Translations under genes and position numbers: made by a program
Notes under the pieces: generated by a model
Seen by the model: the letters and a program-made list of their open reading frames with translations, nothing else
Database searches by the model: none
What the model was told of the DNA's origin: nothing
Assembly: GCA_964608675.1 (NCBI GenBank)
Contig: CAZSOZ010000001.1
Coordinates: 160,001-224,000, forward strand
Direction: 5' to 3'
From: an uncultured archaeon
GTDB taxonomy: Archaea > Iainarchaeota > Iainarchaeia > Iainarchaeales > 1-14-0-10-31-34
DNA length: 64,000 nucleotides
Shown: positions 25,443 to 48,053 of the stretch, one piece after another
Layout: each line of letters begins with the position of its first letter
Numbering within the stretch: the first letter of the stretch is position 1

Positions 25443-27632
25443 ATGAACAAAGCACAGGCGTCAGTAGAACTGCTGGTAATACTTGCAATATCAATGATTG
25501 CAATAGGATTAATTCTGGCTTTATCCAATAACGAAATAACCAGCGTGAATTCAATTAAAGCAAATTCTCAAGCACAAAATACTGTAAACAAAATTGCTGG
25601 AACCGCAGAAGAAGTTTATATTTCAGGAACAGGAACAACAAAACAAATTTTTATTTCAATTCCTTCAGGAGTAAACGAAAACAAGACTTTAATTGAAAAC
25701 AAAACAATAAGATTGAATGTAAATGGAACAGATTTAATTGCAGAAACTGGCGTGGAAATAACAGGAAGCATTCCTACAAAAGAAGGAAGCTACTGGATTT
25801 GGATTACAGCAAAAGAAGGATATGTAGTTATTGGAGACATTCAGATTGAAACAGATAAAGGAAGCATTTATTCAGCCTTAGCGCAAAACACTAATTTAAT
25901 AGAAACCATCACTGTAATAAACAACACTAAAGGAAACGCACAAGTTAATGTGAATGTAAACTGGAATGAAACAGAAGTAAATCTTAATACAGAAGAAACT
26001 TTTTTTAGTGTGCCTGCTGACTCAAATTATTCTATTGACTTAAATTTTACTTCCAACAAAAATGCAGTTGGAAATTATACAGGAGAAATAATTTTTAATG
26101 CAGATACAATTGACGGAACAAAACAAATAATTGTTCCAACAACAATTGAAGTAATTACAGGAAATTCAAATCAGCCTTTAATGATTTTTCCTGCAGAGTG
26201 GAATCTGTTAATTGATGCAGGAAGCACTGATTCAAATACATTTCAAGTATGCAATACTTCTTCACAAAAATTAACAAACATTAGCTTTAATGCATCTTCA
26301 GGAGACGCAGGAAACTGGATTCAAAGCATTCCGGAAATAAACAGCCTGTCTGCAAACACCTGCCAAGAAATTATAGTTGAAATAAGTGTTCCTTTGGGAG
26401 CAGAAGACAACACAGGAACAATTACTGCAAGCGACGGAATTAACTCAGATTTTATTGAATTAAATGTAAACGTAAAAGGAATGAAAGACAACTTTAATTT
26501 TTCATGGGATACAGCCTTCTTTTCAGATGACAGCAGGCTGGACAACTGGACAATAGAAAACACAAGTACAACAACAGAAATAATTATTTCAAGAATGAAA
26601 GTAATGGATTGGAGCATAACAGACAACGATAATGTTTTACTGAGAAGAATAAGATTTAATGGTTCAACTTACTGGAATAGATTAACATTAGACGGAGAAT
26701 GGGCAGACATAACAGACTTTACAATTAATTCTTCAACTTCATATTCTTCAAGAAACAGGCTTGTGTTTAACGGAAACGCAAGAAATGACGGAGAATACTA
26801 CAGAATTGAATTCGAGTTTTTGGATGGAACAACATACACTACAGACACTTTTTATTCACAGGACTTGTTTCCGCCGGCAGTTGTATTAGAAGCTCCTGCT
26901 CCAAAATTTGAATCAAATAATTTTACTGTAAGATTTGATTTCAAAACAGAAGACACAGATTCAGGGATTGCATACTGTGAATTAATAATTGACGGGACAA
27001 TTGACCAGACAAACAATTCAATAACAGAAGGAACAACACAAAGTTTTACTAAAACATTTACTGAAAACAAAGAATACGGATGGGATGTAAACTGCGTTGA
27101 CGACTCTGATTCAGCAAACAAAGGAGGAAGCGATGAAAACAGAAGCATTATAATTAATTCAACTCAACCTTCCCCTCCACAAATAATTGCATTCCATGAT
27201 TTTCCTGATTTAAGCTGGAGTTCTGGAACAGGCTGGCTTTATGAATGGTATCACACAGGAGACAGCAGAATAGTTTTCGGCAACTCTTACACAGGAAATT
27301 ATAGTTTAAGATTAAGAAGAGAAACAGGATACATTGACAGAGCAGTAGACTTAAGTGCTTATATTAATCCAAGACTTCAGTTTTGGGCAAAAACAAATGG
27401 ATTTGAACCAGGAGACGAAGCATATGCAATGGTTTCATCAAACGATACAGATTGGACGATACTCAAAACATTCACTTTCAATGAGCCCAACAACACTTAT
27501 GTGTTTTATGATTTTGATTTAAGTTCACTTAATTTAAGCAGTGAATTCTGGATTGCATTCAGTGCAGGAATGAACAACAGAAACGATTACTTTTATGTTG
27601 ATGACATAAACATAATTCAAAGAACTCCGTGA
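25443..27632 (+). CDS. Large class III signal peptide protein (minor pilin/adhesin with Ig-like repeats)
   Basis: MNKAQ/ASVELLVILA class III motif; N/T/S-rich beta-sandwich repeats. Confidence 0.8.
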   Translation: MNKAQASVELLVILAISMIAIGLILALSNNEITSVNSIKANSQAQNTVNKIAGTAEEVYISGTGTTKQIFISIPSGVNENKTLIENKTIRLNVNGTDLIAETGVEITGSIPTKEGSYWIWITAKEGYVVIGDIQIETDKGSIYSALAQNTNLIETITVINNTKGNAQVNVNVNWNETEVNLNTEETFFSVPADSNYSIDLNFTSNKNAVGNYTGEIIFNADTIDGTKQIIVPTTIEVITGNSNQPLMIFPAEWNLLIDAGSTDSNTFQVCNTSSQKLTNISFNASSGDAGNWIQSIPEINSLSANTCQEIIVEISVPLGAEDNTGTITASDGINSDFIELNVNVKGMKDNFNFSWDTAFFSDDSRLDNWTIENTSTTTEIIISRMKVMDWSITDNDNVLLRRIRFNGSTYWNRLTLDGEWADITDFTINSSTSYSSRNRLVFNGNARNDGEYYRIEFEFLDGTTYTTDTFYSQDLFPPAVVLEAPAPKFESNNFTVRFDFKTEDTDSGIAYCELIIDGTIDQTNNSITEGTTQSFTKTFTENKEYGWDVNCVDDSDSANKGGSDENRSIIINSTQPSPPQIIAFHDFPDLSWSSGTGWLYEWYHTGDSRIVFGNSYTGNYSLRLRRETGYIDRAVDLSAYINPRLQFWAKTNGFEPGDEAYAMVSSNDTDWTILKTFTFNEPNNTYVFYDFDLSSLNLSSEFWIAFSAGMNNRNDYFYVDDINIIQRTP

Positions 27633-28579: not shown

Positions 28580-28992
28580 AAGGATTTGTTATTTCAATGG
28601 ATGCAGTAATTGGATTAATTATTTCATTCAGCCTGCTGATTGCAGTAAACGGTTTTTTTGCTGAAAGCACATTTAATTCATTTAATGGAGCAAAATTAAA
28701 CGCAGTATCAGAAGACATTTTAAGTGTATTAGAAAAAAGCGGGAAACTGGAAAACGCAGTAAAAGAAAACAAAAACAACGAAATAGCAAAATACCTAAAT
28801 AAAACTTCAAAAAATTTGTGCTTTGAAATAAATATATACAAATATGAGTCAATGGAATTAATTAGTTCAGCAACAAAAAAAGCATGCAAAAAAAAAGAAG
28901 CAGAATTAATTATTTCAACAAAAAGAAGTTTTATAGAAAAACAAGAAATTTACTGGGCAGAAATGAAAAGCTGGCACGCGGTGAAAAAATGA
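28576..28992 (+). CDS. Minor pilin-like protein
   Basis: MKG/FVISMDAVIGL class III-like motif; ATGA overlap. Confidence 0.72.
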   Translation: MKGFVISMDAVIGLIISFSLLIAVNGFFAESTFNSFNGAKLNAVSEDILSVLEKSGKLENAVKENKNNEIAKYLNKTSKNLCFEINIYKYESMELISSATKKACKKKEAELIISTKRSFIEKQEIYWAEMKSWHAVKK

Positions 28993-29858
28993 AAACAAAA
29001 GGATACATAATAAGTTTAAGCGCAATAATACTGCTTTCATCCCTGCTGTTATTTGCAATGTTTTACTCAGAAAACTCAAAACAAAGAAATATTGAAGTGA
29101 ACGAAATCATAAAATACTCAAAACTGGACTTCATTAAAGATGATTTAAGTTTTGATTTAAACAGGCTGCTGCAAACAGAAATTCAAATTAACAGAAAAGA
29201 AAACCTTGAACTTGTTTTCAGAGAAAAAATCCCTTCAGAATACAGCAAAAAAACTGCAATTCAAAACCTGAAAAACTTTATTGAAACAAAATACTCAGAA
29301 TTAAATAACGCAGAAATAAAATTAAATAATTCAAGAATAAACAACAGTGTTTTGATAAAATTCAGCAACAAATTAATTTATGAATATAATTTCAACGAAA
29401 ACTCAATTGAATTTTATGCAGAAAACACAGATACAAATCTTGTTTCAGCAGACTTAAATTTAACTGTTCACGGAACTTCAACTGAAGTGATTCTTCCTAT
29501 TCAAAGCACTGAACATAATTTAATTATAAATTTCAATTACGTGGATGAAAACACATTAAATGAAACCCACAAAAACCTAAAACTGGATTCAAGAATTAAC
29601 AACATAATCAGAATACGGTTTTCAAATGAATTAAATGATGAAATTGAAATTAATTTAGGAAGAATTCAAGGAAAAATTAATGCAGTTAAAGTCTGGAACA
29701 AAACTTTAATGGAATACCCTGTATTGCTTGAATTAAAAACTGAAACAACCGGACTGAATGTGGAAAATAAATTAAATATTTTTGCAGACCTTGATTTAAA
29801 TTACAGTCAGACAGACTTTAATTCAAATTCATTAATTGAACTGAATCAATTTAGTTAG
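28989..29858 (+). CDS. Pilin-like/secreted protein of the pilus operon
   Basis: MKTKG/YIISLSAIILL; ATGA overlap with the upstream gene. Confidence 0.7.
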   Translation: MKTKGYIISLSAIILLSSLLLFAMFYSENSKQRNIEVNEIIKYSKLDFIKDDLSFDLNRLLQTEIQINRKENLELVFREKIPSEYSKKTAIQNLKNFIETKYSELNNAEIKLNNSRINNSVLIKFSNKLIYEYNFNENSIEFYAENTDTNLVSADLNLTVHGTSTEVILPIQSTEHNLIINFNYVDENTLNETHKNLKLDSRINNIIRIRFSNELNDEIEINLGRIQGKINAVKVWNKTLMEYPVLLELKTETTGLNVENKLNIFADLDLNYSQTDFNSNSLIELNQFS

Positions 29859-29897: not shown

Positions 29898-31631
29898 ATG
29901 ATTTTAAAAACAAAAATTTTTGAGTTAATAAAACTGCTTAAAACAAGAAAAAAAGCCTCAATTGAAGAAATATCAAAAGAATTAAACTGGGAAAAAAACA
30001 AGCTTGAATTAACTGCAAAAATAATGGAAAAAACAGGAATCATTAACGTAATTTATCCTGCAAACGTTTTATCTAAACCCTACATTAAATTAGAAAAAGA
30101 ACCAAAAGAAACAAAAGAAGAAATGATTCCAACAGGAAAAACTTTGCTGGAATATGAAATACAAGCAGATTCCAGAAAAGGAAAAGCAAAAATACTCCAA
30201 AAAAAAGAAAATAACCGGCCTCAATACTTTCTTGAATTCAACAAAACCGATAAAGCAACAAAAGCATTCATGGAAGAAATAAAAGAAGAAATCGCCCAAA
30301 AAATTTCCATTGACACCGAAGAAACCAAAAAAGAAAAAGAACTAAAAGAAAAATTCATAAAAAACGTGAACGAAACTTTATTGAAATACTTCCCTGAAGA
30401 CAAAAACAACACAACAAAAAAACTTGCAGGAATTTTACTGCACGAAATGTATGGATTAGGAAAAATGGAATTATTAATGAAAGACGATTTACTTGAAGAA
30501 ATTGCAATAAATTCATCAAAAACAAAAATAGCCGTATACCACAGAGAATTCGGATGGCTGAAAACAAACATTGGTCTTGACTCAGAAAACTTAATTGAAA
30601 ATTATGCTTCACAAATTGCAAGAAAAGTAGGAAGAGAAATAACCAACCTTGCTCCTATTCTTGACGCACACTTAATTACAGGAGACAGAGTTAACGCAAC
30701 CCTGTTTCCAGTATCTTCTTCAGGAAACACAATAACAATAAGAAAGTTTTCAAGAAAACCATGGACAATAACAGATTTTATAGGAAAAGAAAAACACACA
30801 ATGAATTCAGAAATGGCAGCATTCTTATGGCTTGCAATACACTATGAAATGAATTTAATGGTGGCAGGCTCAACAGCATCAGGAAAAACTTCAGCCCTAA
30901 ACACTCTGTGCGCAATGATTCCAAGCTATCATAGAATCATTACAATAGAAGACGTAAGAGAATTAACTCTTCCAGATTACCTTAAATGGAACTGGGTGCC
31001 GTTAACAACAAGAAACCCCAATCCAGAAGGATTAGGAGAAATAAGCATGTTTGATTTAATGATGAGCTCATTAAGAATGCGTCCTGACAGAATAATTTTA
31101 GGGGAAATGAGAAAAAGAAAAGAAGCAGAAGTATTATTTGAAGCAATGCACACAGGGCATTCAGTTTACTCAACAATTCACGCTGATTCAGGAAGACAAT
31201 TAGTAAGAAGATTAACTGAACCACCAATTGAAATTCCTTCACTGGAAATAGAAGCACTGCATTTAGCTTTAGTACAATACAGAGACAGAAAAACAAACAA
31301 AAGAAGAACACTTGAAATAAGCGAAATAGACACAGGACTGCATGAAGGAGACGTTGCAATAAACACTATTTATAGATGGAGCCCAAGAACAGATTCATGG
31401 GACAAAGTAGAAGAACCAAACAAATTCTACGGAGAATTAAACCTGCATACAGGATTAACTGAACAAGAAATAGAAAAAGATTTGGAAAGCAGAAAAAAAA
31501 TACTTGAATGGATGGCAGAAAAAAAATACAATACAGTCAACCAAGTAGGAGAAATAATGAAAAACTATTATGCAAAACCAGAAATCGTTTTAAATGCAGC
31601 AGAAAAAAAACTTGACTTAAATAAAATGTAG
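29898..31631 (+). CDS. Type IV/Tad pilus assembly ATPase (TadA/VirB11 family) with N-terminal wHTH-like domain
   Basis: GSTASGKT, ITIEDVREL, SLRMRPDRIILGEMR, AMHTGH. Confidence 0.93.
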   Translation: MILKTKIFELIKLLKTRKKASIEEISKELNWEKNKLELTAKIMEKTGIINVIYPANVLSKPYIKLEKEPKETKEEMIPTGKTLLEYEIQADSRKGKAKILQKKENNRPQYFLEFNKTDKATKAFMEEIKEEIAQKISIDTEETKKEKELKEKFIKNVNETLLKYFPEDKNNTTKKLAGILLHEMYGLGKMELLMKDDLLEEIAINSSKTKIAVYHREFGWLKTNIGLDSENLIENYASQIARKVGREITNLAPILDAHLITGDRVNATLFPVSSSGNTITIRKFSRKPWTITDFIGKEKHTMNSEMAAFLWLAIHYEMNLMVAGSTASGKTSALNTLCAMIPSYHRIITIEDVRELTLPDYLKWNWVPLTTRNPNPEGLGEISMFDLMMSSLRMRPDRIILGEMRKRKEAEVLFEAMHTGHSVYSTIHADSGRQLVRRLTEPPIEIPSLEIEALHLALVQYRDRKTNKRRTLEISEIDTGLHEGDVAINTIYRWSPRTDSWDKVEEPNKFYGELNLHTGLTEQEIEKDLESRKKILEWMAEKKYNTVNQVGEIMKNYYAKPEIVLNAAEKKLDLNKM

Positions 31632-31640
31632 GGAAAAAAA

Positions 31641-32525
31641 ATGAAAATAAAATTCATGTTTCTTTCAATTGAACAGACAGAAAACTTAAACAAAAGGCTC
31701 TTGGTTATAGGAAACTTCCTGAAAAAAATATTTATAGGAACAAAATATGATTTAAAAAAAGCAGAAATCAAAACAGAAACAGAAAACTACCTTACAGCAG
31801 CATTTATTTCAGCAGTAATTTACGGAATAATTTTTTTTACATTAATTACTGTCATGATATTCTTAAAAGAAGGATTAATTCAAACAGCATTCCCCTTAAA
31901 TTTGATTATAGGAACAATTTTTTTTGTTTTATTTTTCTTTCTTCATTTAATTTACCCTGGAATAATTTCAAACCAGCTTGCCTTCGGAATCAACCAAGAC
32001 TTAGTTTTTGCATTAAAAAGCATGCTCATACAAGTTAAATCCGGAATCCCTTTATTTTCTTCAATTGAAAACACAGCTAAAGGAAACTACGGAACAGTAT
32101 CAAAAGAATTCCAATACGTAGTAAATGATATAACCGCAGGGACATCAGAATCAAAAGCAATAGAAAAAATGGCGCTAAGAACAAAATCAGATTACCTAAA
32201 AAAAGCAGGCTGGCAAATAGTGAATTCAATTAAAAGCGGAGCCAGTGTAGTAAGCGCATTAGAAACAACAATCGAAACACTGACAGCAAACCAAATGAGA
32301 TCAATAAAAAATTATTCAGCCGAACTCAATTTATGGATTTTAATATATTTGCTTTTGGCAGCAGCAATCCCAACTTTAGGAATAACTTTTATGATAATAC
32401 TGTCTTCAATGGGAGGCACAAGCATAACAGAAATGCATATAATTGCAACAATTGCTTTTGCATTTATTGTACAAATCATCTTAATTGGTTTTGTAAAAAA
32501 CCGAAAACCAAAGGTGGTTCTGTGA
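31641..32525 (+). CDS. Type II secretion system F / TadC-like membrane platform protein
   Basis: TM helices, KSGIPL, YGTVSKEF; follows the ATPase. Confidence 0.85.
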   Translation: MKIKFMFLSIEQTENLNKRLLVIGNFLKKIFIGTKYDLKKAEIKTETENYLTAAFISAVIYGIIFFTLITVMIFLKEGLIQTAFPLNLIIGTIFFVLFFFLHLIYPGIISNQLAFGINQDLVFALKSMLIQVKSGIPLFSSIENTAKGNYGTVSKEFQYVVNDITAGTSESKAIEKMALRTKSDYLKKAGWQIVNSIKSGASVVSALETTIETLTANQMRSIKNYSAELNLWILIYLLLAAAIPTLGITFMIILSSMGGTSITEMHIIATIAFAFIVQIILIGFVKNRKPKVVL

Positions 32526-33538
32526 AACTAACTGCATTCAATTTAATTCAAAAAAGACTTTCAGAAACAATTCCTGAAAAAATAAGAAAACAAATTTCAA
32601 TAAAAATGAATTACGCAGGAATAAAACAAGACATAGATGAATGGACAGGCAAAAGACTTTTTCTTTCACTGTTATTTGGATTAATAGGAATACTTATTCC
32701 TGTAAGTTTAGGAAATTTTTTTAGTTTAACAGAATTAAACATTCAAATAATTTACGGAATAATTCTGGGAACAATTTTTTTTCTGTTAACATTATTGTTA
32801 TATTATCTGCATTTAGAATACCAAATTGAAGACAGAAGAAAAAGAACAGAATCCGTTCTCCCTGATTTTCTTTTATTAGTTTCATCAAATTTACGGTCAG
32901 GAATGACTCCATTCGAAGCATTCAAAAACAGTTCCAGAGAAGAATTCGGACCGTTAGCAGAAGAAATAAAAATAATTACAGCAAAAAGCATGGGCATAGA
33001 ATCATTCAGAGATTCACTAAAACAACTGGAAAAAAAAATTGACTCCAGAATCCTAAAAGAAAGCATTTCCTTTTTATCTGAAAGCATGAAATCAGGAGGA
33101 AAACTCGCAAAACTACTTGAAGCAAGCGCAGAAGACATGTCAGAAACACAAGAATTAAAAAAAGAAATGATTTCAGGAACAAAAATGTATGTAATGTTTG
33201 TATTATTTGTAATAATTGCTGCAACCCCTCTCCTTATGTCAATTTCCGTTCAATTCCTTGACATGATTTCATCCATTCAAACAGAACAAACAACAGGAAA
33301 CACAGAACTAAATTTAGGTTTTCTTAATTCCCAACTTGCAATTACACCAAACTTCATGCAAAATATTGCATTAATTTTATTTTTCGGAAACGCAATTCTT
33401 TCAAGTTTATTTATCGGAATATTAACAGAAAGAAAAGCAAGACTTGGAGTAAAATATTCTCCAATAATTTTTATTGCAACAACAATACTGTTTATTGGAT
33501 TCAAAACACTGGTTTCAGGAATTTTGTCTGTTATATGA
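32522..33538 (+). CDS. Type II secretion system F / TadC-like membrane platform protein
   Basis: LPDFLLLVSSNLRSGMT, FGPLAEE, SGGKLAKLL; probable GTG start overlapping the upstream stop. Confidence 0.85.
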   Translation: MKLTAFNLIQKRLSETIPEKIRKQISIKMNYAGIKQDIDEWTGKRLFLSLLFGLIGILIPVSLGNFFSLTELNIQIIYGIILGTIFFLLTLLLYYLHLEYQIEDRRKRTESVLPDFLLLVSSNLRSGMTPFEAFKNSSREEFGPLAEEIKIITAKSMGIESFRDSLKQLEKKIDSRILKESISFLSESMKSGGKLAKLLEASAEDMSETQELKKEMISGTKMYVMFVLFVIIAATPLLMSISVQFLDMISSIQTEQTTGNTELNLGFLNSQLAITPNFMQNIALILFFGNAILSSLFIGILTERKARLGVKYSPIIFIATTILFIGFKTLVSGILSVI

Positions 33539-33608
33539 AAAGAAAAAGATTATAAATAAAAAAACCACTAATAGATAATATTATTTTTATTTAGAGGAGG
33601 AAAAAAAA

Positions 33609-34061
33609 ATGATTGAAAGAAAAGCACAAGGAACAACCGAATACCTTATTATTCTGGCTGTAATCATAGTGATTGCATTAGTAGTTGTTGGAGTAATGGG
33701 TTGGGTTCCAGGATTAAGCGGAGGAATAACAGAACAGCAGTCAAGAGCATACTGGCAGTCAACAGCTCCATTCGCAATAAAAGAATACAAAATAAGCGGA
33801 ACAACAGCAAGCCTAGAAGTCCAAAATGTTTCAGCAAACAAACTTACTTTAACTGACGTTGAATTAGACGGAGAAGGAAGCATTGCATCCAACGTTGAAT
33901 TCAATGCAGGAGAAAGCAAGCTAGTGACTGTTACAATTACCACTGCGTGCGGAGACCCTGGAACAGGATTTGACAAAAACGTAAGCTTTACATACAACTC
34001 AAAAAATGTCACAGGACTAGTTCAAATCGGAGACAAAGGACTAATAGGAAAATGCAGTTAA
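33609..34061 (+). CDS. Probable major type IV pilin
   Basis: RKA/QGTTEYLIILAVIIVIALVVVG; own TATA (TTATAAA) and GAGGAGG SD; downstream hairpin. Confidence 0.85.
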   Translation: MIERKAQGTTEYLIILAVIIVIALVVVGVMGWVPGLSGGITEQQSRAYWQSTAPFAIKEYKISGTTASLEVQNVSANKLTLTDVELDGEGSIASNVEFNAGESKLVTVTITTACGDPGTGFDKNVSFTYNSKNVTGLVQIGDKGLIGKCS

Positions 34062-34877: not shown

Positions 34878-34968
34878 TTAAACCAATAACAATAAAATAC
34901 AAACAAATAAATAAAATTACCTGAAATAAACAACAAATTAAAGCTTTTTTACAGAAAAAATATAAATA

Positions 34969-36798
34969 ATGCAATATGAAAACGTTTCTCCAAAAAAACT
35001 CTTGAATTCAGTTAAAAAAACACAAGAATACTCTTTAATAAAAAAAGCCACAGAACATGCTGAAAAAGAATTAACAGGAAAAAAATTATCAAACTGCCTT
35101 AACACAGCATACACAATAAACTCCCTTGCAATAAGAGGAAACATAATTTCAGCAACCTTATTGCATGAAACAAAATTAAATCAAGAAGAAATAAAAAAAG
35201 AATTCAACGAAGACACAAAAAAATTAGTTGAATCAATAAGAAAAATAAAAAAAATAGAATCACAATACAAAAACTTTGACTCAAAAACATTAAGCAAAAT
35301 AATTCTTGCAACAACCAAAGACGCAAGAACAATAATAATTATTCTGGCATCAAAACTTGCTGAATTAAGAAATGCAAAAAAAGAAGAAAAACACAAAGCA
35401 AAAATAGTACAGGAAGTATACCTCCCCATAAGCCAAAAACTAGGGTTAAACGAAATAAAATGGGAATTAGAAGACCTTGCATTCAAATTACTGCAAAAAA
35501 AAGAATACGATAAAATAAAATACAAATTAAAAAAGAAAAAAACAGAAAGAGAAAAAGAACTAAAAAAAATAATAAAAGAAATAAAAAAAACACTAAAAAA
35601 AGAAAAAATAAAAGCAGAAGTAATTGGAAGAACAAAAAATTTCGTTGGAATCCACAACAAAATGAAAAGAAAAAAATGCGGTTTAGAAGACCTCCATGAT
35701 TTAATTGCAGTAAGAATAATCTGCAACACAATAAAAGAATGCTATATTATTCTGGGAATAATTCATTCATTATATGAACCTTTACTGAATTCATTTGATG
35801 ACTATATTGCAAACCCCAAAGAAAATAATTACAAGTCAATTCACACAGACCTAAAAACAAAAGACAAACAGGTTTTTGAAGCACAAATAAGGACATGGGA
35901 AATGAACGCAGAAGCAGAAGAAGGCCTTCCTGCCCACTGGACATACAAACAAATAAAAAAAGACACAGAATTCGACGGAAAACTTATTTGGGCAAAACAA
36001 TTAATTGAATGGAACAAAAAAAACAAAACAAAAAACGTGCTGGATACAATAAAAATAGGGTTTGAAGAAAAAAAAATATTTACTTTAACCCCAAAAGCAG
36101 ACATAATTGAACTGCTCCCAAAATCAACTCCAATAGATTTTGCGTACTCAATTCATTCAGCAGTAGGAAACAAATGCAGTAAAGCAAAAGTAAACGGAAA
36201 AATAGTTCCCTTAGATTATCCGCTTGAAAATGGAGACATCATTGAAATAATAATTTCACCAAAACAGCACCCAAAAAGACAATGGCTTACCATAGCAAAA
36301 ACAACAAAAGCAAAAGCAAAAATAAGACAAGCATTAGAAATAACAGGACAAGAAAAAAAAAGAAAAAAAACAATAAAAACAATTCCAATAAAAATGACTC
36401 ATTCAATCAGAATATCAAAATGCTGCAATCCCCTCCCTGAAGATAAAATTGCCGCACTAAAAACAACTAAAAGAAAAATAGCAATACATAAAGAAAACTG
36501 CAGAAACATCTTAAGAGAAAACCCAAAAAAAATAATTCCAATAAGCTGGGAAATGATAGGAAAAAAAGAATTAACTGCAGAAATAAAAATAGAAGCAAAA
36601 GAAAAAGTAAATCTGCTTAAAGACATTCTTGATGCAATAGTTTTACTAAAAGGAAAAGTGATTGCAACAGAAACAAAAGTTGAAAACAAAAAAGTGATTT
36701 CAAAATTCACAATACAAGCAAAAAAACCACAGGCAATAAGCCGAATAATAGAAAAAATAAAAAAAATAGAAGGAATAAAAACAGTAAAAAGAAGCTAA
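34969..36798 (+). CDS. Long RelA/SpoT homolog (degenerate HD, SYNTH, TGS, ZFD, ACT)
   Basis: GRTKN, DLIAVRI, FDDYIANPKENNYKSIHT, EAQIRT, AHWTYK; TGS TPIDFAYSIHS; CCNPLP...HKENC. Confidence 0.92.
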   Translation: MQYENVSPKKLLNSVKKTQEYSLIKKATEHAEKELTGKKLSNCLNTAYTINSLAIRGNIISATLLHETKLNQEEIKKEFNEDTKKLVESIRKIKKIESQYKNFDSKTLSKIILATTKDARTIIIILASKLAELRNAKKEEKHKAKIVQEVYLPISQKLGLNEIKWELEDLAFKLLQKKEYDKIKYKLKKKKTEREKELKKIIKEIKKTLKKEKIKAEVIGRTKNFVGIHNKMKRKKCGLEDLHDLIAVRIICNTIKECYIILGIIHSLYEPLLNSFDDYIANPKENNYKSIHTDLKTKDKQVFEAQIRTWEMNAEAEEGLPAHWTYKQIKKDTEFDGKLIWAKQLIEWNKKNKTKNVLDTIKIGFEEKKIFTLTPKADIIELLPKSTPIDFAYSIHSAVGNKCSKAKVNGKIVPLDYPLENGDIIEIIISPKQHPKRQWLTIAKTTKAKAKIRQALEITGQEKKRKKTIKTIPIKMTHSIRISKCCNPLPEDKIAALKTTKRKIAIHKENCRNILRENPKKIIPISWEMIGKKELTAEIKIEAKEKVNLLKDILDAIVLLKGKVIATETKVENKKVISKFTIQAKKPQAISRIIEKIKKIEGIKTVKRS

Positions 36799-36884: not shown

Positions 36885-37628
36885 ATGAAAAGAGTTAAAA
36901 CAGGAATAAGCGGGTTGGACGAATTAATTGAAGGAGGTTTTCCGGAAAAAAGAGCAATGCTTGTATCAGGCGCCTGTGGAACAGGAAAAACAATTTTTTC
37001 AATGCAGTACATTTACAACGGAGCAATAAAATACAATGAACCAGGAATATATGTAACTTTAGATGAACGCCCTGAATTAATTCGAGAAGACGTAGCAAGA
37101 TTTGGATGGGATCTAAGAAAACTGGAAGAAAAAAAATTATTAAGCATAATAGACGGAAGCGTGGCAAGAATAGGAATGCCCTCAGAAGAAGAATTCTCTC
37201 TGCCAATGACAGGATTTGATTTAGACAAGCTTTTGCTGGAAATAATGAGAGTAACAAAAAGAATTGGAGCAAAAAGAGTTGTAATTGATTCAATTCCTGC
37301 ATTAGGATTTAATTTTGAAAACGAAAACGAAACAAGAAAAGCAATACTCAAATTAAGTTATATGTTAATGAGAATAGGAGTCACATCAATAATGACTTCA
37401 GAAATACAGGAAGGAGCGGCAAAATTCGGAAAATACGATGTAGAAGAATATGTAGTTGACGGAGTAGTCATACTGCATTATTCAGGAATTGGAGGAGGAG
37501 GAACAAACAGAACTATTCACATCCGAAAAATGAGAGCCACCAAACACTCCGAAGACTTGCATCCATTAACAATAACAAAAAAAGGAATGAATATACATGG
37601 AATAGAAGAAGCATACGATGAAAGCTGA
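36885..37628 (+). CDS. KaiC/RAD55-like ATPase (single domain)
   Basis: TGISGLDELIEGG, GACGTGKT, RVVIDS, EEYVVDG, RKMRATKH. Confidence 0.9.
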   Translation: MKRVKTGISGLDELIEGGFPEKRAMLVSGACGTGKTIFSMQYIYNGAIKYNEPGIYVTLDERPELIREDVARFGWDLRKLEEKKLLSIIDGSVARIGMPSEEEFSLPMTGFDLDKLLLEIMRVTKRIGAKRVVIDSIPALGFNFENENETRKAILKLSYMLMRIGVTSIMTSEIQEGAAKFGKYDVEEYVVDGVVILHYSGIGGGGTNRTIHIRKMRATKHSEDLHPLTITKKGMNIHGIEEAYDES

Positions 37629-39626: not shown

Positions 39627-41156
39627 TTATTCAAATTCAATTGTTGCAGGAGGCTTTTGGGAAATGTCATACAAAACCCTTGAAACCCCTTCAACTTCAT
39701 TCAAAATTCTGGAAGAAACTTTTTCAAGAAAATCATCAGAAAACCTTGTCCAGTCAGCAGTCATTCCATCCACAGAATTAACTGCACGCAAAGCAACAAC
39801 AAAAGAATACTCTCTTGAATCTCCCTTAACTCCAACAGCCTTAACAGGAAAAATTACAGCAAACGCCTGCCAAGTTTTATCATACAATTTATTTTTTCTT
39901 AATTCATCAACAAAAATAAAATCCGCTTCCCTCAAAATACCAAGTTTTTCTCTGGTTATCTCCCCTAAAATCCTTACAGCAAGCCCTGGACCTGGAAAAG
40001 GATGTCTTTCAACAACATCTTCAGAAATTCCTAAAAGTTTTCCTATTTCACGAACTTCATCCTTATAAAATTCCCTTAAAGGTTCAAGTAAAAGAAAATT
40101 CATTTTTTCAGGCAAAGAAAGATTATGATGAGATTTAATTTTAGCGACAGTTTTAGAAGGTTCTGCTGACTCAATTCTATCAGGATAAATTGTGCCCTGC
40201 CCCAAAAAAGAAATTTTTCCAAACTGTTTTTCAAGCTCCAAAGCCTTTTCTTCAAAAACCTCAATAAAAGTATGGCCAATAATTTTTCTTTTTTCTTCAG
40301 GATCAAAAACTCCTTCCAAAGCAGACAAAAATTTTTCAGAAGCATCAACTACAAAAAAATGCTTGAAATTCATTTTACGATAAAGAGCTTCAACAAAATC
40401 CCTGTCTCCCTTTCTGATTAAACCAGTATCAACAAAAACACAAAATAATTGACTAGAAACAGTTTTATGAATTAAAACAGACGCAACCAAAGAATCCACT
40501 CCCCCTGAAACCCCCATTAAAATCCTTTTGTTTCCTGCTCTTAATTTTATTTCTTTTTGAATATCCTTTAAAACAAAAGAAATTTTCCAGTCTTTTTTTG
40601 CTCTGCAAACATTCAAAAAATTCTGAAAAATTTTTTTTCCTTTAGGAGTATGATGAACTTCAGGATGAAACTGCAAACCAAAAATTTTCTTTTTAGAAGA
40701 AAACATTGAAGAAACAGCACAAGACTTCGTTTTAGAAGAAACAACAAACCCTTCAGGAAGAACTTTAACTGAATCCCCATGAGAAAGCCAAACCTGCTCC
40801 TTATTTAAACCATTAAACAAAGGGTCTTTTCCTTTAACAAAAATAATGTTTTTGCCGTATTCTTTTGAGTTACTTGAATCAACTCTGCCATCTAAAAGAA
40901 CAGTGATTAACTGAAGACCATAACAAATTCCCAAAACAGGAACCCCCAAATCCAAGACAGCAGAATCCATTTTCGGAGCATTAAACTGATTAACACTTGA
41001 AGGGCCTCCAGACAAAATTATTCCATCAGGATTAAATTTTTTTAATTCCAAAGCAGTAATTGAATGAGAAAAAATTTCTGCTTTAACTCCTAATTCCCTT
41101 ATTTTTCTTGCAATCAAATGACAATACTGGCCTCCAAAATTAATTACTGCAATCAT
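39627..41156 (-). CDS. guaA: GMP synthase (fused glutamine-hydrolysing, bacterial-type architecture)
   Basis: LSGGPSSV, GICYGLQ, QFHPEV, SGGVDS, IKSHHN, KPPATIEFE. Confidence 0.96.
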   Translation of the reverse strand: MIAVINFGGQYCHLIARKIRELGVKAEIFSHSITALELKKFNPDGIILSGGPSSVNQFNAPKMDSAVLDLGVPVLGICYGLQLITVLLDGRVDSSNSKEYGKNIIFVKGKDPLFNGLNKEQVWLSHGDSVKVLPEGFVVSSKTKSCAVSSMFSSKKKIFGLQFHPEVHHTPKGKKIFQNFLNVCRAKKDWKISFVLKDIQKEIKLRAGNKRILMGVSGGVDSLVASVLIHKTVSSQLFCVFVDTGLIRKGDRDFVEALYRKMNFKHFFVVDASEKFLSALEGVFDPEEKRKIIGHTFIEVFEEKALELEKQFGKISFLGQGTIYPDRIESAEPSKTVAKIKSHHNLSLPEKMNFLLLEPLREFYKDEVREIGKLLGISEDVVERHPFPGPGLAVRILGEITREKLGILREADFIFVDELRKNKLYDKTWQAFAVIFPVKAVGVKGDSREYSFVVALRAVNSVDGMTADWTRFSDDFLEKVSSRILNEVEGVSRVLYDISQKPPATIEFE

Positions 41157-41246
41157 TCAAAAAAGCCTCCAACAAAAACAAAAAAAAAGAAAAAAAATAG
41201 AATTTTTTTATTAGACATAAATAATGATTGAAAAAAAGTCTTTTAA

Positions 41247-41627
41247 TTATTTTGATTTAAGAATACGGACTGCAAAATAAGCAGCGTTTTGAGCGTTGTC
41301 GATGCCAACACATGCAACAGGAACCCCTTTAGGCATCTGAACAATAGAAAGCAATGCATCAAGCCCCCCCAACTTAGAAGAAACAGGAACCCCAATAACC
41401 GGCTTCAAAGTATGAGAAGCAATTACTCCAGGCAAAGCAGCACTCAAACCCGCAATTGCAATAAAAACATCAAAATCTTTTTCTGCTATCTCTTTTACTT
41501 TTTCAGGACTTCTATGCGCAGAAGCAACAAATGTTTCAAAAGAAATTTTGTTTTCCTTCAAAACTTTTTCAGCTTTCTCTGCAATCTTCCTGTCTGATTC
41601 AGATCCCATTACAACTGCAACTTTCAT
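41247..41627 (-). CDS. purE: N5-CAIR mutase / AIR carboxylase
   Basis: [33 protein letters not shown]. Confidence 0.93.
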
Positions 41628-41675
41628 TCAACCACCAACAAAAATATTATTTTTCTTTTATTTAATTATTCGCTT

Positions 41676-42644
41676 TTACTGCCAATTATTTTTTTCCTTT
41701 AATTCCCTGTATTCCTGAACTACCCTGCTTAAAGGCCTGGCAGACGCAAAATTTTCTTCAATCCATTCCTGTGCAAAAGAAAAATAAAACTCTGAAATTA
41801 ATTCTAAAAGTTTTGAAGGCATTTCAGGAGGTTCCGGCCATTCATCTTTTTGTTTTCCTTCCTGCATTGCTTTCTTTAATTCATTCTTCCACGAAGTAGT
41901 ATTATAATAATCTCTTGCGACCTGCTTGCTTACATGAACGCCATTAAACAAAAAACGGTTTTCATCCAAAGTACCAAAAACATCAACCAACAAAAGATTT
42001 CTTTCAGGAGAAAAAGCCAATTCAATTTTTCCGTCAGCATGAATTAAATTTAAAGACTCTGCTTTTTTATTTAAAAAATCATTAACCATCAAAGCAATCT
42101 GTTTTATTTCATTTAATTCAAATTCATTTAAAGCACTCATACTCAAAGCTTCCTGTTCAGTTAAAAGCCTGTCAGTCGGCTCCAATTTAGTAAAAAATTC
42201 AATCAAAGGGTTGTCAAAAAAAGTGTTTGGTTCAGGCACAGAAGACAAACCATATTGTTCAGGTTTAGCTTCCCCTTTCCTAAAACGAGAAAGCAAAGAA
42301 CTTCCTTCAGGAAGCATATTACGAAAAACAACCTCCAAAGGAATCAAATAATTTGAATCCTCTTTTGTCAATTTTCTTTTCTGGGGATAAATTACCTGCA
42401 CTAATTTTACTTTCATTTGATTTGGCTTAATGAACTCCAAAAAATGAGAAAAAATATTCAATTCAGAAATTTTTTCAAAATTATATGACGCCATCCTGCA
42501 TAAAGCTTCTCCTTTTCCAGGAATCTGCTGAGGCATTTTGCCATAATCAAAAATACTGTAATCATCAGTAAAAGAAAAAATTCCTTCACCAAACTCTTTT
42601 TCAGAAGCTTTCTTTAAAACCATTAAATCCTTAACTGACCCCAA
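41676..42644 (-). CDS. purC: SAICAR synthetase
   Basis: GSVKD, FTDDYSIFDYG, IPLEVVFRN, ADGKIE, GTLDENRF. Confidence 0.9.
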   Translation of the reverse strand: MGSVKDLMVLKKASEKEFGEGIFSFTDDYSIFDYGKMPQQIPGKGEALCRMASYNFEKISELNIFSHFLEFIKPNQMKVKLVQVIYPQKRKLTKEDSNYLIPLEVVFRNMLPEGSSLLSRFRKGEAKPEQYGLSSVPEPNTFFDNPLIEFFTKLEPTDRLLTEQEALSMSALNEFELNEIKQIALMVNDFLNKKAESLNLIHADGKIELAFSPERNLLLVDVFGTLDENRFLFNGVHVSKQVARDYYNTTSWKNELKKAMQEGKQKDEWPEPPEMPSKLLELISEFYFSFAQEWIEENFASARPLSRVVQEYRELKEKNNWQ

Positions 42645-42653
42645 ACAAACACC

Positions 42654-44087
42654 TCACTCATGTTTTTTTCTTTCATGGTTTCTGGTTTTCTCAAATTCTT
42701 TTTCAATTGCATCAGGAATAGGAACAGGGTATTTTCCATCCAAACAAGCCATACACAAATCCTTTCTCTGTAAAGCTTTCTTTAAAGAATCAATTGAATT
42801 ATAAATCAATAAATCTGCGCCAATATGTTCCTGAATTTCTTTAACAGACTTTTTTGCTGCAATTAATTCATTCTTTGAAGGCATATCAACTCCATAAAAA
42901 CAAGGAGAAACAATAGGCGGACAAGTAGACAAAAAATAAATTTTATTTGCTCCGTTGTCTTTCAGCAATTTAACGATTTTCTTGGAAGTTGTGCCTCTTA
43001 CAATGCTGTCATCAACAAGAATAATGTTTTTTCCGTTTACTTCACTGTAAACAGGATTCAATTTAAGTTTTACTCCATTCTCTCTTTTAATCTGAGAAGC
43101 CATAATAAAAGTCCTGCCAATATACCGGTTTTTAATTAAACCTTCACGATAAGGAAGACCAATTACTTCAGCCAAACGAGAAGCAGCAGTACGACTTGTA
43201 TCAGGAACCGGAACAACAACATCAGCTTTTAAACCAGTTTTCAACCATTCATGAGCAAGCTGTTCGCCTAAATTAATTCTTGCAGTATAAACCTCCAAAT
43301 TATCAATAATAGATTCTGCTCCAGCAAAATAAACCCATTCAAACATGCAATGACGAGGTTTTCCTTCAATTAAATTCTTTGAATGAACATTAAGATTTGA
43401 ATCAACAAAAACCGCCTGTCCTGCTTCAACATTTCCCAAAAGCTTATGGCCAGTAGAAGTCAAAGGCAAAGACTCAGAAGAAAAACCAATAGATTTGATT
43501 CCGTTGGATTCTTTTTCAGCCATTACCAAAGGGCGAATTGCATTAGGGTCACGAAAAGCAAGAAGTCCTTTGTCTTTTAGTACCATAACCACAGAATACG
43601 CTCCATGAACTTTTTCAAAAACTTTTTTAACTGCATTAAAAACTGCGTCAACAGAAAATTCTTCAGGCAAAGCATTAGCAAAAACATGAAGAATTACCTC
43701 AACATCACAAGAAGAAACCACACAAGTTTTATCAGTATTAAGTTGTTTTTTTAATTCAAAATAATTAGTGATGTTTCCGTTATGCGCAATACCGATTTCA
43801 TAAGGCTTAGAAACCTTAAACGGCTGAGCATCAGTTAAAAAATCAGAACCAATAGTAGGATAACGGGTATGGCCAATAGCAAAATTAGAAGACAGTTTAC
43901 TTAATTCTTTTTCAGTAAAAATGCTTCCGACAAGGCCTTCATTTTTAATTAACTTTAATTCATCAGAATCAGCTTTATAAGAAAGAATTCCTGCAGAATC
44001 CTGCCCTCTGTGCTGAAGAGAAAGCATTCCCACAAACAAGTCAGGCAAAACACTCTTTTTAGAAATAATTCCAATTATTCCGCACAT
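42654..44087 (-). CDS. purF: Amidophosphoribosyltransferase
   Basis: MCGIIG, LQHRGQDSAG, GHTRYPT, CMFEWVYFA, VDDSIVRGTT. Confidence 0.96.
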   Translation of the reverse strand: MCGIIGIISKKSVLPDLFVGMLSLQHRGQDSAGILSYKADSDELKLIKNEGLVGSIFTEKELSKLSSNFAIGHTRYPTIGSDFLTDAQPFKVSKPYEIGIAHNGNITNYFELKKQLNTDKTCVVSSCDVEVILHVFANALPEEFSVDAVFNAVKKVFEKVHGAYSVVMVLKDKGLLAFRDPNAIRPLVMAEKESNGIKSIGFSSESLPLTSTGHKLLGNVEAGQAVFVDSNLNVHSKNLIEGKPRHCMFEWVYFAGAESIIDNLEVYTARINLGEQLAHEWLKTGLKADVVVPVPDTSRTAASRLAEVIGLPYREGLIKNRYIGRTFIMASQIKRENGVKLKLNPVYSEVNGKNIILVDDSIVRGTTSKKIVKLLKDNGANKIYFLSTCPPIVSPCFYGVDMPSKNELIAAKKSVKEIQEHIGADLLIYNSIDSLKKALQRKDLCMACLDGKYPVPIPDAIEKEFEKTRNHERKKHE

Positions 44088-44197
44088 AAAAAAAAACCGA
44101 GGACACTCAAATAATATAATGAAAGACTTAAAAGAATTTAAAGCAAATGGCTAAAAAAAAGAGAAAACAATAAAAACAATTCAAATCATATTTATAT

Positions 44198-45538
44198 ATG
44201 TTAAAAGCTATTTCTCCGATAGACGGAAGATACGAAAGCCAAACAAAAGAATTACAAGAAATTTTCTCAGAATACGGAACGCAAAAATACAGAACAGAAA
44301 CTGAAATAAAATACCTGCTTTTTTTATCAAAAAAAAACATAATAAGAAAATTTACTGAAAAAGAAAAAAAAATTCTTAAAAACATTTATGAAAACTTCAA
44401 CCAAAAAGACTCAAAAGAAATAAAAAGAATAGAAAAAACCACAAACCACGATGTAAAAGCAGTTGAATACTTTATAAGAAAAAAAATAAAAAAAAGTTCA
44501 CTGAAAGACATTGAAAGTTATGTTCATTTTGGGCTGACATCAGAAGACATAAACAATCTGGCAAACTCAAAACAAATACAAAAAGGATTAGATTTATACA
44601 TAACTATTTGTTCTGCTTTGCACAAAAAACTAAAAGAAATTTCATTAAAAGAAAAAAACACTGCCATGCTTTCCCATACCCATGGCCAGCCAGCTTCCCC
44701 GACAACCTTTGGAAAAGAAACAGCAGTATTTGCTTCAAGAATAAAAGAAAGCCTTGAATTAATAAAAAAAATGAATCTGCCGGGAAAACTGAATTCTGCT
44801 TCAGGAAACTTTAATTCATTTTATGCTGCTTTTCCAGAAAAAAACTGGATTAAATTAAGCAAAGAATTCGTTGAAAGCCTTGGATTCGAACACAAAAAAT
44901 TAACCGTCCAAATAATTCCGCATGACAACATTTCAAGAATCTTAAATGAAATAAGCCTGCTGAACAGCATCATAATTAATCTGGATACAGATTTATGGTT
45001 TTACATAAGCAAAGAATACGTTTCACAAAAAAAAATAGGAACAGAAACAGGCAGTTCAGTTATGCCTCACAAAATAAATCCAATTCAATTTGAAAACAGT
45101 GAAGGAAACCTTGTTCTGGCAAACAATCTTCTGGATTTCTTAAGTTCAAGATTAATGAAAACAAGAATGCAAAGAGATTTAACTGACTCAACAATAAAAA
45201 GAAACTACGGAACAGCCTTTGGGCATTCAATAATAGGAATAAAAATGTGCTTAAAAGGACTAAACAGAATAAAACCAAACAAACAAAAAATGCTCGAAGA
45301 ACTCAAAAAAAACCCTGAAATATTAACAGAAGCAATCCAAACAATAATGAGAAAAGAAGGAAACACCCAAGCATACGAAAAACTCAAAAACATTTCAAGA
45401 GGAAAAAAAATAACATTAGAAGAACTAAAAAAATTCATAAAAAAAAGTTCATTAAGCCAAAAAGAAAAAAACAAGCTTATGAAATTAACTCCTGAAAAAT
45501 ATTTAGGAAAAGCAGAAGAACTCGCAAAAAGCAATTAA
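44198..45538 (+). CDS. purB: Adenylosuccinate lyase
   Basis: ISPIDGRY, TNHDVKAVEY, HFGLTSEDINN, GSSVMPHKINPIQFENSEGN. Confidence 0.95.
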   Translation: MLKAISPIDGRYESQTKELQEIFSEYGTQKYRTETEIKYLLFLSKKNIIRKFTEKEKKILKNIYENFNQKDSKEIKRIEKTTNHDVKAVEYFIRKKIKKSSLKDIESYVHFGLTSEDINNLANSKQIQKGLDLYITICSALHKKLKEISLKEKNTAMLSHTHGQPASPTTFGKETAVFASRIKESLELIKKMNLPGKLNSASGNFNSFYAAFPEKNWIKLSKEFVESLGFEHKKLTVQIIPHDNISRILNEISLLNSIIINLDTDLWFYISKEYVSQKKIGTETGSSVMPHKINPIQFENSEGNLVLANNLLDFLSSRLMKTRMQRDLTDSTIKRNYGTAFGHSIIGIKMCLKGLNRIKPNKQKMLEELKKNPEILTEAIQTIMRKEGNTQAYEKLKNISRGKKITLEELKKFIKKSSLSQKEKNKLMKLTPEKYLGKAEELAKSN

Positions 45539-46824: not shown

Positions 46825-46897
46825 ACCTTTCAAAATATGCTTAGAAGAATTTAAAAAAAGAAAGTTCTTTTTTTGATTAAAATTTTTTCTTAAAAAA

Positions 46898-46971
46898 TGA
46901 GGCTGGCGGGATTTGAACCCGCGACACCACGGTCTTCAGCCGTGTGCTCTCCCAGACTGAGCTACAGCCTC
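46898..46971 (-). tRNA. tRNA-Phe (GAA)
   Basis: Cloverleaf GAGGCTG...CAGCCTCA; anticodon arm CACGG-CTGAAGA-CCGTG; no intron. Confidence 0.95.
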
Positions 46972-47014
46972 AGAAACAAAATATTGTTTGTAATAATGCA
47001 TTTAAAGATATGGA

Positions 47015-47087
47015 CGAGCCCGGAGGGATTCGAACCCCCGACCCCATGGTTAAGAGCCATGTGCTCTGCCAACTGAGCTACGGGCCC
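47015..47087 (-). tRNA. tRNA-Lys (CTT)
   Basis: Anticodon arm CATGG-CTCTTAA-CCATG; GGTTCGAATCC T arm. Confidence 0.95.
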
Positions 47088-47148
47088 ATGATATTAAAAT
47101 CATAAGAGAAAAAATTTAAATCCTGCACTAAAAAAAAAATAATCTTTT

Positions 47149-47877
47149 TCAAAAAAATCCCCTTATTCTTTTTGCATCCCCTGAAATCTTAGTCTGCGGG
47201 AACCTTGATAATTTTTTATCTTTTTCTCCAACCCCAATATAAAAAGGCTGGTTTTCAAAAAAATACCAGTTAGTTTTTTCATCAAGCGGAAAACCCCACT
47301 CTAAATTCAAATCTGCATTTCTTCCTTTTCCAATCAGCTTCCATTTTTTTATCCCTATTTTTTCAGAATACTTATGAAAAAAAAACCTGAGAAGAGCCTT
47401 CTGATGCCCAGTTTTTACAGTTGAATCAACAAAAATTACTGATTTTCCATTCCAATTTCCTTTTTTAGCCAAATTCAATAACTTTTTGTCCACCCTCTCA
47501 AATTTCCTGCCAGTTAACTCCTGAAAACTTAATTTAACAAACTGCATTGAATCCAAATCCAACGCCTTCTTTAAAGCAAGAGAAGGAATTCTACCGCCCC
47601 TATCAATTCCGACAAAAACAGCATTGTTTAAATCAATTTTCTGTTTTCTTAAAAAATTTCTTACCTTCCAATTAATCTGCGCCAAATTTGTTTTCAAAAA
47701 CATTATTTGAAGTTTTTGCAGGGCAGGAATTTTCTTATTATAAAATTTTTTTTCAAGTGTCTTCGCAGACTGTTTATTCCTAAAAGTTTCTTTCTTTATT
47801 TTTTCATAAGCCCGTCTGGCTCTTTGAGCTTGCGTTAAATTTCCTTTAACAATTTTTCCTGCAGACATAATTTTCAT
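47149..47877 (-). CDS. Basic type I phosphoribosyltransferase-like orphan
   Basis: FVGIDRGGRIP and PRPP-loop-like VIFVDSTVKTG; K/R-rich N-terminal extension. Confidence 0.6.
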   Translation of the reverse strand: MKIMSAGKIVKGNLTQAQRARRAYEKIKKETFRNKQSAKTLEKKFYNKKIPALQKLQIMFLKTNLAQINWKVRNFLRKQKIDLNNAVFVGIDRGGRIPSLALKKALDLDSMQFVKLSFQELTGRKFERVDKKLLNLAKKGNWNGKSVIFVDSTVKTGHQKALLRFFFHKYSEKIGIKKWKLIGKGRNADLNLEWGFPLDEKTNWYFFENQPFYIGVGEKDKKLSRFPQTKISGDAKRIRGFF

Positions 47878-47980
47878 TTAAAAATAAAAAACAAAAAATT
47901 TAAGAACAAGATGAAAAACTAAAACACTGCAGTTAAAACAAAAATAAAAAAATCGGGCGCCTAAAAAAAAAGGCTGTTAA

Positions 47981-48053
47981 CGAGTCCGAAGGGATTCGAA
48001 CCCTCGACACCCGGCTTAAAAGGCCGGTGCTCTGCCAACTGAGCTACGGACCC
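47981..48053 (-). tRNA. tRNA-Lys (TTT)
   Basis: Anticodon arm CCGGC-CTTTTAA-GCCGG; GGTTCGAATCC T arm. Confidence 0.95.

Follow-up and report, generated by a model that had tools for sequence, protein, structure and literature searches.

Escherichia coli RelA, whose structure on the 70S ribosome is known (5iqr, 5kpv), is a long RelA/SpoT homologue (RSH) with a degenerate hydrolase, an active-type synthetase, a TGS histidine, four zinc ligands and an ACT domain. The same set is found in the 609-residue product of a gene in a 64,000-nucleotide stretch of DNA, the window, which comprises bases 160001-224000 of contig 1 (CAZSOZ010000001.1, assembly GCA_964608675.1) of an uncultured archaeon of the order Iainarchaeales. 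E. coli RelA provides the best sequence and fold matches of this protein and both have an acidic xFDD motif (EFDD in RelA, SFDD in the archaeal protein), but the latter has an archaeal host, is 135 residues shorter and is without the alpha-helical domain. A second long RSH of the same genome, encoded on contig 2, resembles the hydrolase-only SpoT of Acinetobacter baumannii (structure 7qpr): both have an intact HD domain and an inactive pseudo-synthetase, and both share their genome with a synthetase-only long RSH. The contig-2 paralogue differs from this SpoT in that zinc finger and alpha-helical domain are both gone (its order is HD, pseudo-synthetase, TGS, ACT; 598 aa), in its independent origin and in its position next to argS. 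Bacillota Rel (Bacillus subtilis Rel 6yxa and the proteins of Fervidicola, Caldanaerovirga and Thermovenabulum) has the overall architecture of the archaeal synthetase in common, but is bifunctional, carries RFKD or RIKD, has a full alpha-helical domain and lies on the bacterial side of the tree described below.

Surveys and reviews still have archaea without long RSHs and with guanosine tetra- and pentaphosphate, (p)ppGpp, undetected (PMC3153485, PMC10249747). In the portions that were available, the 2011 RSH census reports archaea to be devoid of long RSHs, the 2023 review of archaeal second messengers calls (p)ppGpp enzymes rare in archaea, and the text of the 2019 preprint of the updated census is silent on archaeal long RSHs (10.1101/575399). 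An earlier sequence-only reading of the window likewise placed long RSHs outside standard archaeal biology; the census and reviews agree, but RelA/SpoT proteins of DPANN archaea have been in print since 2021, when a genomics study recorded them, in the part of the paper accessible here, for 69.0% of Diapherotrites, 41.7% of Woesearchaeota, 21.3% of Pacearchaeota and 19.0% of Nanoarchaeota and predicted a bacterial origin (PMC8407392), and 143 of 201 genomes of the phylum sampled here match the synthetase at E <= 1e-10 (44/58 among high-quality genomes). That study is the sole prior mention in the literature searched; its Fig. S34, and Tables S1/S2 of the 2019 preprint, may list or place archaeal long RSHs. 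Supplements aside, the searches of that literature found no earlier account of how the two paralogues are paired, of the loss of the helical domain, of the signature in the zinc finger or of either conserved gene pair reported below.

Domain architecture of the archaeal synthetase

The RelA-like open reading frame (ORF) proposed in the sequence-only reading is real, at exactly 34969-36798 on the + strand. Orthologues of its product are termed A-type below. Domain calls are Pfam matches at curated cut-offs, which all four pass, and the order within the ORF is pseudo-hydrolase, synthetase, TGS, zinc finger and ACT:

34969..36798, + strand: RSH gene, A-type long RSH, 609 aa (ORF list, Pfam, PDB sequence matches and AlphaFold2 (AF2) model)
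35038..35448, + strand: pseudo-hydrolase HD_4 (PF13328), aa 24-160, 63.9 bits against a cut-off of 27.2
35626..35952, + strand: synthetase RelA_SpoT (PF04607), aa 220-328, 122 bits against a cut-off of 27, catalytic motifs intact
36082..36252, + strand: TGS with His396, aa 372-428, Pfam 72 bits
36259..36405, + strand: linker in place of the alpha-helical domain, aa 431-479, from the model and motif spacing
36406..36543, + strand: zinc-finger domain (ZFD/RIS), aa 480-525, from alignment to E. coli RelA and SpoT, ligands C485, C486, H507 and C511
36565..36792, + strand: ACT (RRM) domain, ACT_4, aa 533-608, Pfam 32.5 bits

The catalytic-half motifs begin at residues 64 (LLHETK), 220 (GRTK), 244 (DLIAVR), 275 (SFDDY), 286 (NNYKSIH) and 304 (EAQIRT), and the C-terminal ones at 393 (YSIHS), 485 (CCNP) and 507 (HKENC, which includes C511). 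Aligned with the relA and spoT products of the annotated E. coli K-12 record, the pseudo-hydrolase has lost the histidine of the HP motif, retains only 'HE' of HDxxED owing to a four-residue deletion, and has SKLAEL for DxxHN. The synthetase motifs, His396 and all four zinc ligands align with both E. coli proteins, His396 falling on the histidine of their IHS/VHT motifs. Residues R221, K223, D244, R249, E304, Q306 and R308 are invariant in an 81-row alignment, and C485, C486, H507 and C511 are invariant in alignment A2. Among solved structures, the best sequence matches are RelA 8fr8_I (5e-96) and E. coli RelA 5iqr_8 (1.9e-89).

Loss of the hydrolase motifs (HP His, HDxxED and DxxHN) beside intact RxK, DxxxxR, YxSxH and ExQIRT is the RelA-like, hS pattern. 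An N-terminal HD_4 followed by RelA_SpoT, with a C-terminal TGS, CC..H..C zinc finger and ACT/RRM, is that of a long RSH, of which the protein lacks the alpha-helical domain (PF19296, RelA AH/RIS). The sequence-only reading had already described intact synthetase motifs, a TGS that keeps the histidine contacting the tRNA CCA end (YSIHS), a CC...H..C zinc finger with an ACT domain, and a degenerate hydrolase without the upstream histidine; every one of these is borne out by the alignment and the Pfam matches. On its sequence, the 609-aa protein is thus confirmed as a genuine archaeal long RSH of the RelA-like hS type, with a hydrolase predicted to be dead and a synthetase predicted to be intact.

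A hydrolase paralogue on contig 2

Searching the archaeon's own genome with the Pfam RelA_SpoT model gave three places, namely the synthetase, a 598-aa ORF and a 340-aa ORF. The 598-aa ORF is the paralogue introduced above:

Contig 2 bases 19175-20971 (L002:676-2472), outside the window: B-type long RSH, 598 aa, from the RelA_SpoT Pfam search of the genome

Its product matches HD_4 (121-124.5 bits), RelA_SpoT weakly, TGS and ACT. In the alignment its hydrolase is intact (HP, HDVVED, LADKRHN) and its synthetase appears dead, with KYKR for GRxK and KVYIRT for ExQIRT; the TGS histidine, the zinc finger and the alpha-helical domain are all missing. Judged by these motifs, the genome pairs a synthetase-only (hS) with a hydrolase-only (Hs) long RSH. 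The sequence-only reading had expected a separate hydrolase elsewhere in the genome, and this paralogue, a further long RSH whose HD domain is intact, is that hydrolase. That reading had proposed looking for a small alarmone hydrolase; the search was run with PF13328 and matched only the B paralogue and the pseudo-HD of the synthetase, so the genome has no small alarmone hydrolase and a long RSH paralogue is found instead.

The 340-aa protein (contig 2 bases 9639-10661, L003:1411-2433, - strand) matches RelA_SpoT weakly in its C-terminal part (36 bits, a synthetase-like domain), and its N-terminal 200 aa are unassigned. It was found in 1/41 genomes of the order, this one, where it is encoded among a row of small same-strand ORFs. 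An accessory small alarmone synthetase and a toxin-like gene are both conceivable identities; PADLOC returned nothing for it.

Conservation across the order

The sequence-only reading had allowed for a chimeric assembly or for a gene absent from related genomes. When this was checked, the protein query found a match in 36 of the 41 genomes of the order, including 24 of 25 high-quality ones, so a chimera is not the source of the gene, which is a lineage trait and no accident of a single assembly. As read from the match table, A-type proteins (full or partial) occur in 34/41 genomes, with the B-type (a second match, at about 30% identity) also present in 22/41. Within the phylum sample some families were without a match (f30, 0/18; five further families, 0/19). 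The names attached to close homologues are mixed, comprising 'Candidatus Diapherotrites archaeon', 'Candidatus ainarchaeum sp.', 'Candidatus Micrarchaeota archaeon' and plain 'archaeon'; they indicate a DPANN host, probably of Diapherotrites/Iainarchaeota type.

ORFs were extracted and their motifs tabulated for 31 A-type and 21 B-type proteins. HDxxED is present in 0/31 A-type and 20/21 B-type proteins, and DxxHN in 1/31 and 20/21 respectively. Conversely, the A-type synthetase has RxK, D....R and ExQ in 31/31 and ExQIR in 30/31, whereas GRxK and ExQIRT are each found in 0/21 B-type proteins, whose catalytic glutamate is mostly replaced by lysine. The TGS histidine is kept by all 31 A-type proteins and by a single B-type protein (1/21), and the CC..H..C zinc finger, with a 'TTKRK' lineage signature, by 31/31 and 0/21. 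Mean pairwise identity among A-type proteins is highest in TGS (0.56), followed by the synthetase (0.51), zinc finger (0.48), ACT (0.30) and pseudo-HD (0.29). By these motif counts the order holds a clean pair of hS and Hs proteins in which the tRNA- and ribosome-binding determinants are retained in the synthetase only. Retention of the TGS histidine and zinc ligands in the synthetase and their loss from the hydrolase paralogue is the pattern expected for tRNA/ribosome sensing.

The A-type orthologue of one same-family genome (L011, G007:C36:11057-12874) contains a single in-frame TGA, which may reflect sequencing error, decay to a pseudogene or recoding.

Phylogeny and related groups

Matches in the databases are of three kinds: A-type proteins of about 605-640 aa, a short C group of about 625-650 aa, and forms of 713-770 aa that carry PF19296. 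C-group proteins are labelled Woesearchaeota or Nanoarchaeota archaeon where a name is readable. Like the A-type they fall on the DPANN side of the tree, have no PF19296, show short spacing between TGS and zinc finger (median 98, 42/102 measurable) and mostly have xFDD; unlike it, they keep HDxxED as well as the synthetase motifs and have a zinc finger without 'TTKRK'. With both catalytic domains intact, the C group looks bifunctional like Rel. The xFDD motif is found in most A and C sequences, and RFKD or RIKD in 65/79 bacterial ones. When relatives of the C group were sought in genome contigs, the matches listed comprised at least 80 loci, all bacterial and at most 51% identical, with no close relative among them; these loci served as the labelled bacterial sample. 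In metagenome contigs (P0050 query) 34 loci were found, again at no more than 51% identity, with full-length matches of about 2.1-2.2 kb and no close relative. Bacillota Rel proteins are the top-scoring named bacterial relatives, being 36-44% identical to the synthetase and, along about 71% of the length, 55% identical to the C group.

A first quick tree with 20 bacterial rows left the deep relations open and was replaced by a broader one (IQ-TREE, LG+C20 with posterior mean site frequencies (PMSF), 73 rows, 647 columns). It draws on 11 A, 8 B and 14 C rows and on 40 bacterial ones, which span at least 13 phyla and include RelA and SpoT of E. coli; 20/31 A-type, 13/21 B-type and 47/79 bacterial ORFs and most database hits lie outside it. 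The bacterial rows were picked from best hits and are without Patescibacteria, Bacteroidota, Cyanobacteriota and Spirochaetota, compositional deviation was flagged in 19 rows including that of the synthetase, and the B-type branches are long. In this tree the 33 DPANN sequences stand apart from the 40 bacterial sequences at 100/100, and the A and B clades are supported at 100/98 and 100/99. Since E. coli RelA is inside the bacterial side of this split, the archaeal synthetase is outside the RelA clade; a phylogeny across DPANN, as suggested in the sequence-only reading, therefore upholds an archaeal grouping while withholding RelA membership. On the sequence evidence, the protein is a shortened archaeal variant outside the proteobacterial RelA subfamily and no RelA orthologue. 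From the same split it follows that the A/B division is independent of the duplication that gave proteobacterial RelA and SpoT. The DPANN proteins are nested in no sampled bacterial phylum, and the tree, which names no donor, would be compatible with acquisition from Bacteria, the view published in the accessible part of PMC8407392.

Loss of the alpha-helical domain and the structural model

The distance from the TGS histidine to the CC of the zinc finger is 89 residues in the archaeal synthetase, 180 in E. coli RelA and 159 in SpoT. Its median is 91 in A-type proteins (n=31) and 182 in bacteria (73/79 measurable). The complete long-RSH domain order claimed in the sequence-only reading consequently holds for HD, synthetase, TGS, zinc finger and ACT, but not for the alpha-helical domain. 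PF19296 is not in the precomputed Pfam lists of the short archaeal forms and is present in the 713-770-aa forms, which are bacterial wherever a source name is given.

An AF2 model built from 81 sequences has a predicted local distance difference test score (pLDDT) of 84.5 and a predicted template modelling score (pTM) of 0.75. Where the alpha-helical domain would be, it shows a lone helix at 446-456 followed by disorder at 461-476, with pLDDT under 50, while ACT adopts a beta-alpha-beta-beta-alpha-beta fold. The top Foldseek match is RelA on the 70S ribosome (5iqr_8, E 1.6e-35), and globally the closest superposition is with full-length SpoT 7qpr, at TMq 0.54-0.55, compared with 0.41 for RelA in its ribosome-bound form. 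The modelled fold is confident and closest to RelA, Rel and SpoT structures.

Gene neighbourhood

The surroundings of the RSH gene include the following features:

34878..34968, no strand: intergenic region between tpiA and the RSH gene, A+T-rich, with a T-rich box about 25 nucleotides (nt) before the ATG that by eye is a possible archaeal TATA box
36885..37628, + strand: KaiC-like single-domain ATPase gene, PF06745 256.6 bits, positions 1-229 of 231
22943-23218, + strand: archaeal signal recognition particle (SRP) RNA, RF01857, 129 bits

The RSH gene and tpiA are divergent; 86 nt past the RSH gene comes the KaiC-like ATPase gene, and next class I lysS. The ATPase scores under every NCBIfam cut-off (ArlH, 28.7 against 215). 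In 22 of the 31 other A-type loci of the order, the next gene downstream, on the same strand, is KaiC-like, its product being 61-94% identical in the 16 best-matching loci and 49% identical in L031. KaiC-like proteins are signalling hubs in archaea. Other neighbours recur less often at the 31 loci (tpiA 8/31, lysS 8/31, pilin 5/31), and the high-identity tpiA and lysS matches, along with all the pilin matches, come from five same-genus loci. On contig 2, the B-type gene begins 21 nt downstream of argS, and ArgRS is encoded directly upstream in 19/20 other B-type loci. Two gene pairs are therefore conserved, synthetase followed by KaiC-like ATPase and ArgRS followed by hydrolase.

The purine genes guaA (- strand), purF-like (- strand) and purB (+ strand) are found at 39627-45538, 3-9 kb downstream of the RSH gene.

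Discussion

The A-type protein is probably a monofunctional alarmone synthetase that, with the contig-2 hydrolase, forms an independent DPANN pair for making and breaking an alarmone, working like RelA and SpoT. Its product would most likely be (p)ppGpp. The hydrolase domain of the synthetase may have been kept as a structural pseudo-domain, and the synthetase would be held off by its own C-terminal region until an uncharged tRNA presents its 3' end to TGS, whose histidine would contact the CCA end while the zinc finger and ACT anchor the protein on the ribosome. Activation of this kind, by deacylated tRNA in the A site of an archaeal ribosome, through TGS, zinc finger and ACT and without an alpha-helical domain, is plausible, if slightly short of an even prospect. 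The B-type protein, which would be co-expressed with ArgRS, would then degrade the alarmone. Targets might, speculatively, include conserved GTPases and purine enzymes, guaA, purF and purB being nearby; bacterial purine enzymes include (p)ppGpp targets. A bolder version, in which this is a true DPANN stringent response, is a rather unlikely extension: it would have a distinct old RSH branch shed the alpha-helical domain, reshape the zinc finger for deacylated tRNA on the archaeal ribosome, split convergently into synthetase and hydrolase, and become wired to a KaiC-like ATPase and ArgRS.

Several observations weigh against a RelA/SpoT-like pair sensing tRNA on the ribosome. The 2016 cryo-electron microscopy papers reportedly place the alpha-helical domain between TGS and zinc finger in ribosome-bound RelA; here this domain is almost entirely lost (about 90 residues), so the bacterial binding geometry cannot simply be assumed for an archaeal ribosome, and the sequence implies a geometry other than the one RelA adopts on the 70S ribosome. 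In five relatives with an A-type protein only (G022, G023, G017, G020 and G045, 92-99% complete) the sole HD_4 match is the pseudo-HD of the synthetase (5/5), and the synthesis-only system of the sequence-only reading, which the contig-2 paralogue contradicts for this genome, is what these relatives would have. Uncontrolled alarmone synthesis is toxic in bacteria, and the many relatives without a recognisable RSH hydrolase are hard to square with that toxicity. A match to NCBIfam TIGR00691 (spoT_relA) at E 5.3e-138 answers the proposed test with RSH subfamily hidden Markov models in part, but all three long-RSH cut-offs are missed: 461.3 bits against 499.2 for TIGR00691, 339.6 against 728 for the RelA equivalog NF008124 and 314 against 947 for the SpoT model. 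Support is weak for the branching of A, B and two C clades relative to one another and to the bacterial stem (A+C1, 75/57), so that a duplication of A and B inside the lineage is only a possibility. Finally, (p)ppGpp has gone undetected in Haloferax and Sulfolobus according to the parts available of two papers on archaeal second messengers, from 2021 and 2023 (PMC8646023, PMC10249747), although these archaea are not reported there to carry such genes.

The missing alpha-helical domain of the bacterial ribosome complex also speaks for a ribosome-independent synthetase, in which TGS, zinc finger and ACT would form an autoinhibitory module whose release falls to a protein partner, with the KaiC-like ATPase as a candidate, or to a small ligand binding at ACT. 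Bacterial Rel and SpoT are controlled by partners and ligands through these very domains, the KaiC-like gene is the downstream neighbour at most of the other A-type loci, and the AF2 model is compact and superposes better on SpoT 7qpr than on ribosome-bound RelA. Adjacency of genes alone is no proof of binding, however, and the TGS histidine and four zinc ligands, kept in every one of the synthetase orthologues tabulated and lost from the hydrolase paralogue, fit this explanation poorly; it is therefore held to be unlikely, though worth serious attention. A different product is more improbable by some distance. The enzyme could make (pp)pApp, or pyrophosphorylate the tRNA 3' end in the manner of toxic small alarmone synthetases, and so serve as a growth-arrest or defence effector: RSH synthetase domains have diversified in substrate (10.1101/575399 and 10.1101/2021.04.30.441581, in the parts accessible), and the SFDD of the archaeal protein, standing before Y-I-A, departs from RxKD and, in its exact form, from ExDD, the motifs of the enzymes that have been studied. 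Yet the architecture is that of a long RSH, the core motifs are invariant and are those of the RelA, Rel and SpoT enzymes that make (p)ppGpp, the gene is chromosomal, lineage-wide and accompanied by a dedicated hydrolase paralogue, and the locus has no bicistron resembling a toxin-antitoxin pair.

Bacterial contamination, chimerism or recent non-functional transfer is scarcely credible as the source of the gene. In its favour, long RSHs are typically bacterial, and so are the nearest solved and named non-archaeal relatives. The gene nevertheless lies in the middle of a 364-kb contig with archaeal genes on both flanks, in a genome of 1.2 Mb in 53 contigs that is 94% complete with 0.64% contamination. 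The sequencing runs listed for it are three DNA sets from a single study, none of them RNA. G+C content is even across the window (0.27-0.35), which carries archaeal SRP RNA and the archaeal markers class III signal-peptide pilin, class I LysRS and A/V-type ATPase. Across the order there are orthologues whose neighbours are conserved too, the ORF is unbroken, catalytic residues are kept across orthologues, and the DPANN proteins separate from the sampled bacteria in the tree. Contamination and chimeric assembly were ruled out on the archaeal contig, its even composition, the low contamination and the order-wide orthologues and neighbours.

A whole archaeal order carries a well-conserved synthetase and hydrolase pair in which the uncharged-tRNA determinants are confined to the synthetase. 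If the pair is active, alarmone signalling would reach archaea with tiny genomes, nature would have run an experiment on how RelA/SpoT functions divide by convergence, and a long RSH pared to a minimum, with no alpha-helical domain, would probe what the coupling of alarmone synthesis to the ribosome, here an archaeal one, needs. Being small and soluble-looking, the proteins are open to testing without a culture of the organism, and an archaeal stringent response becomes directly testable.

Other features of the window

A type IV pilus-like cluster occupies 29898-34061 on the + strand and encodes a 577-aa T2SSE ATPase, a pair of T2SSF membrane proteins of 294 and 401 aa whose ORFs overlap at 32333-32525, and the class III signal-peptide pilin. 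Just upstream of the pilus ATPase, ORFs of 729 and 324 aa within 25443-27632 and 28884-29858 (+ strand) have no Pfam match at E <= 1e-5. Four tRNA genes are located at 46897-50815.

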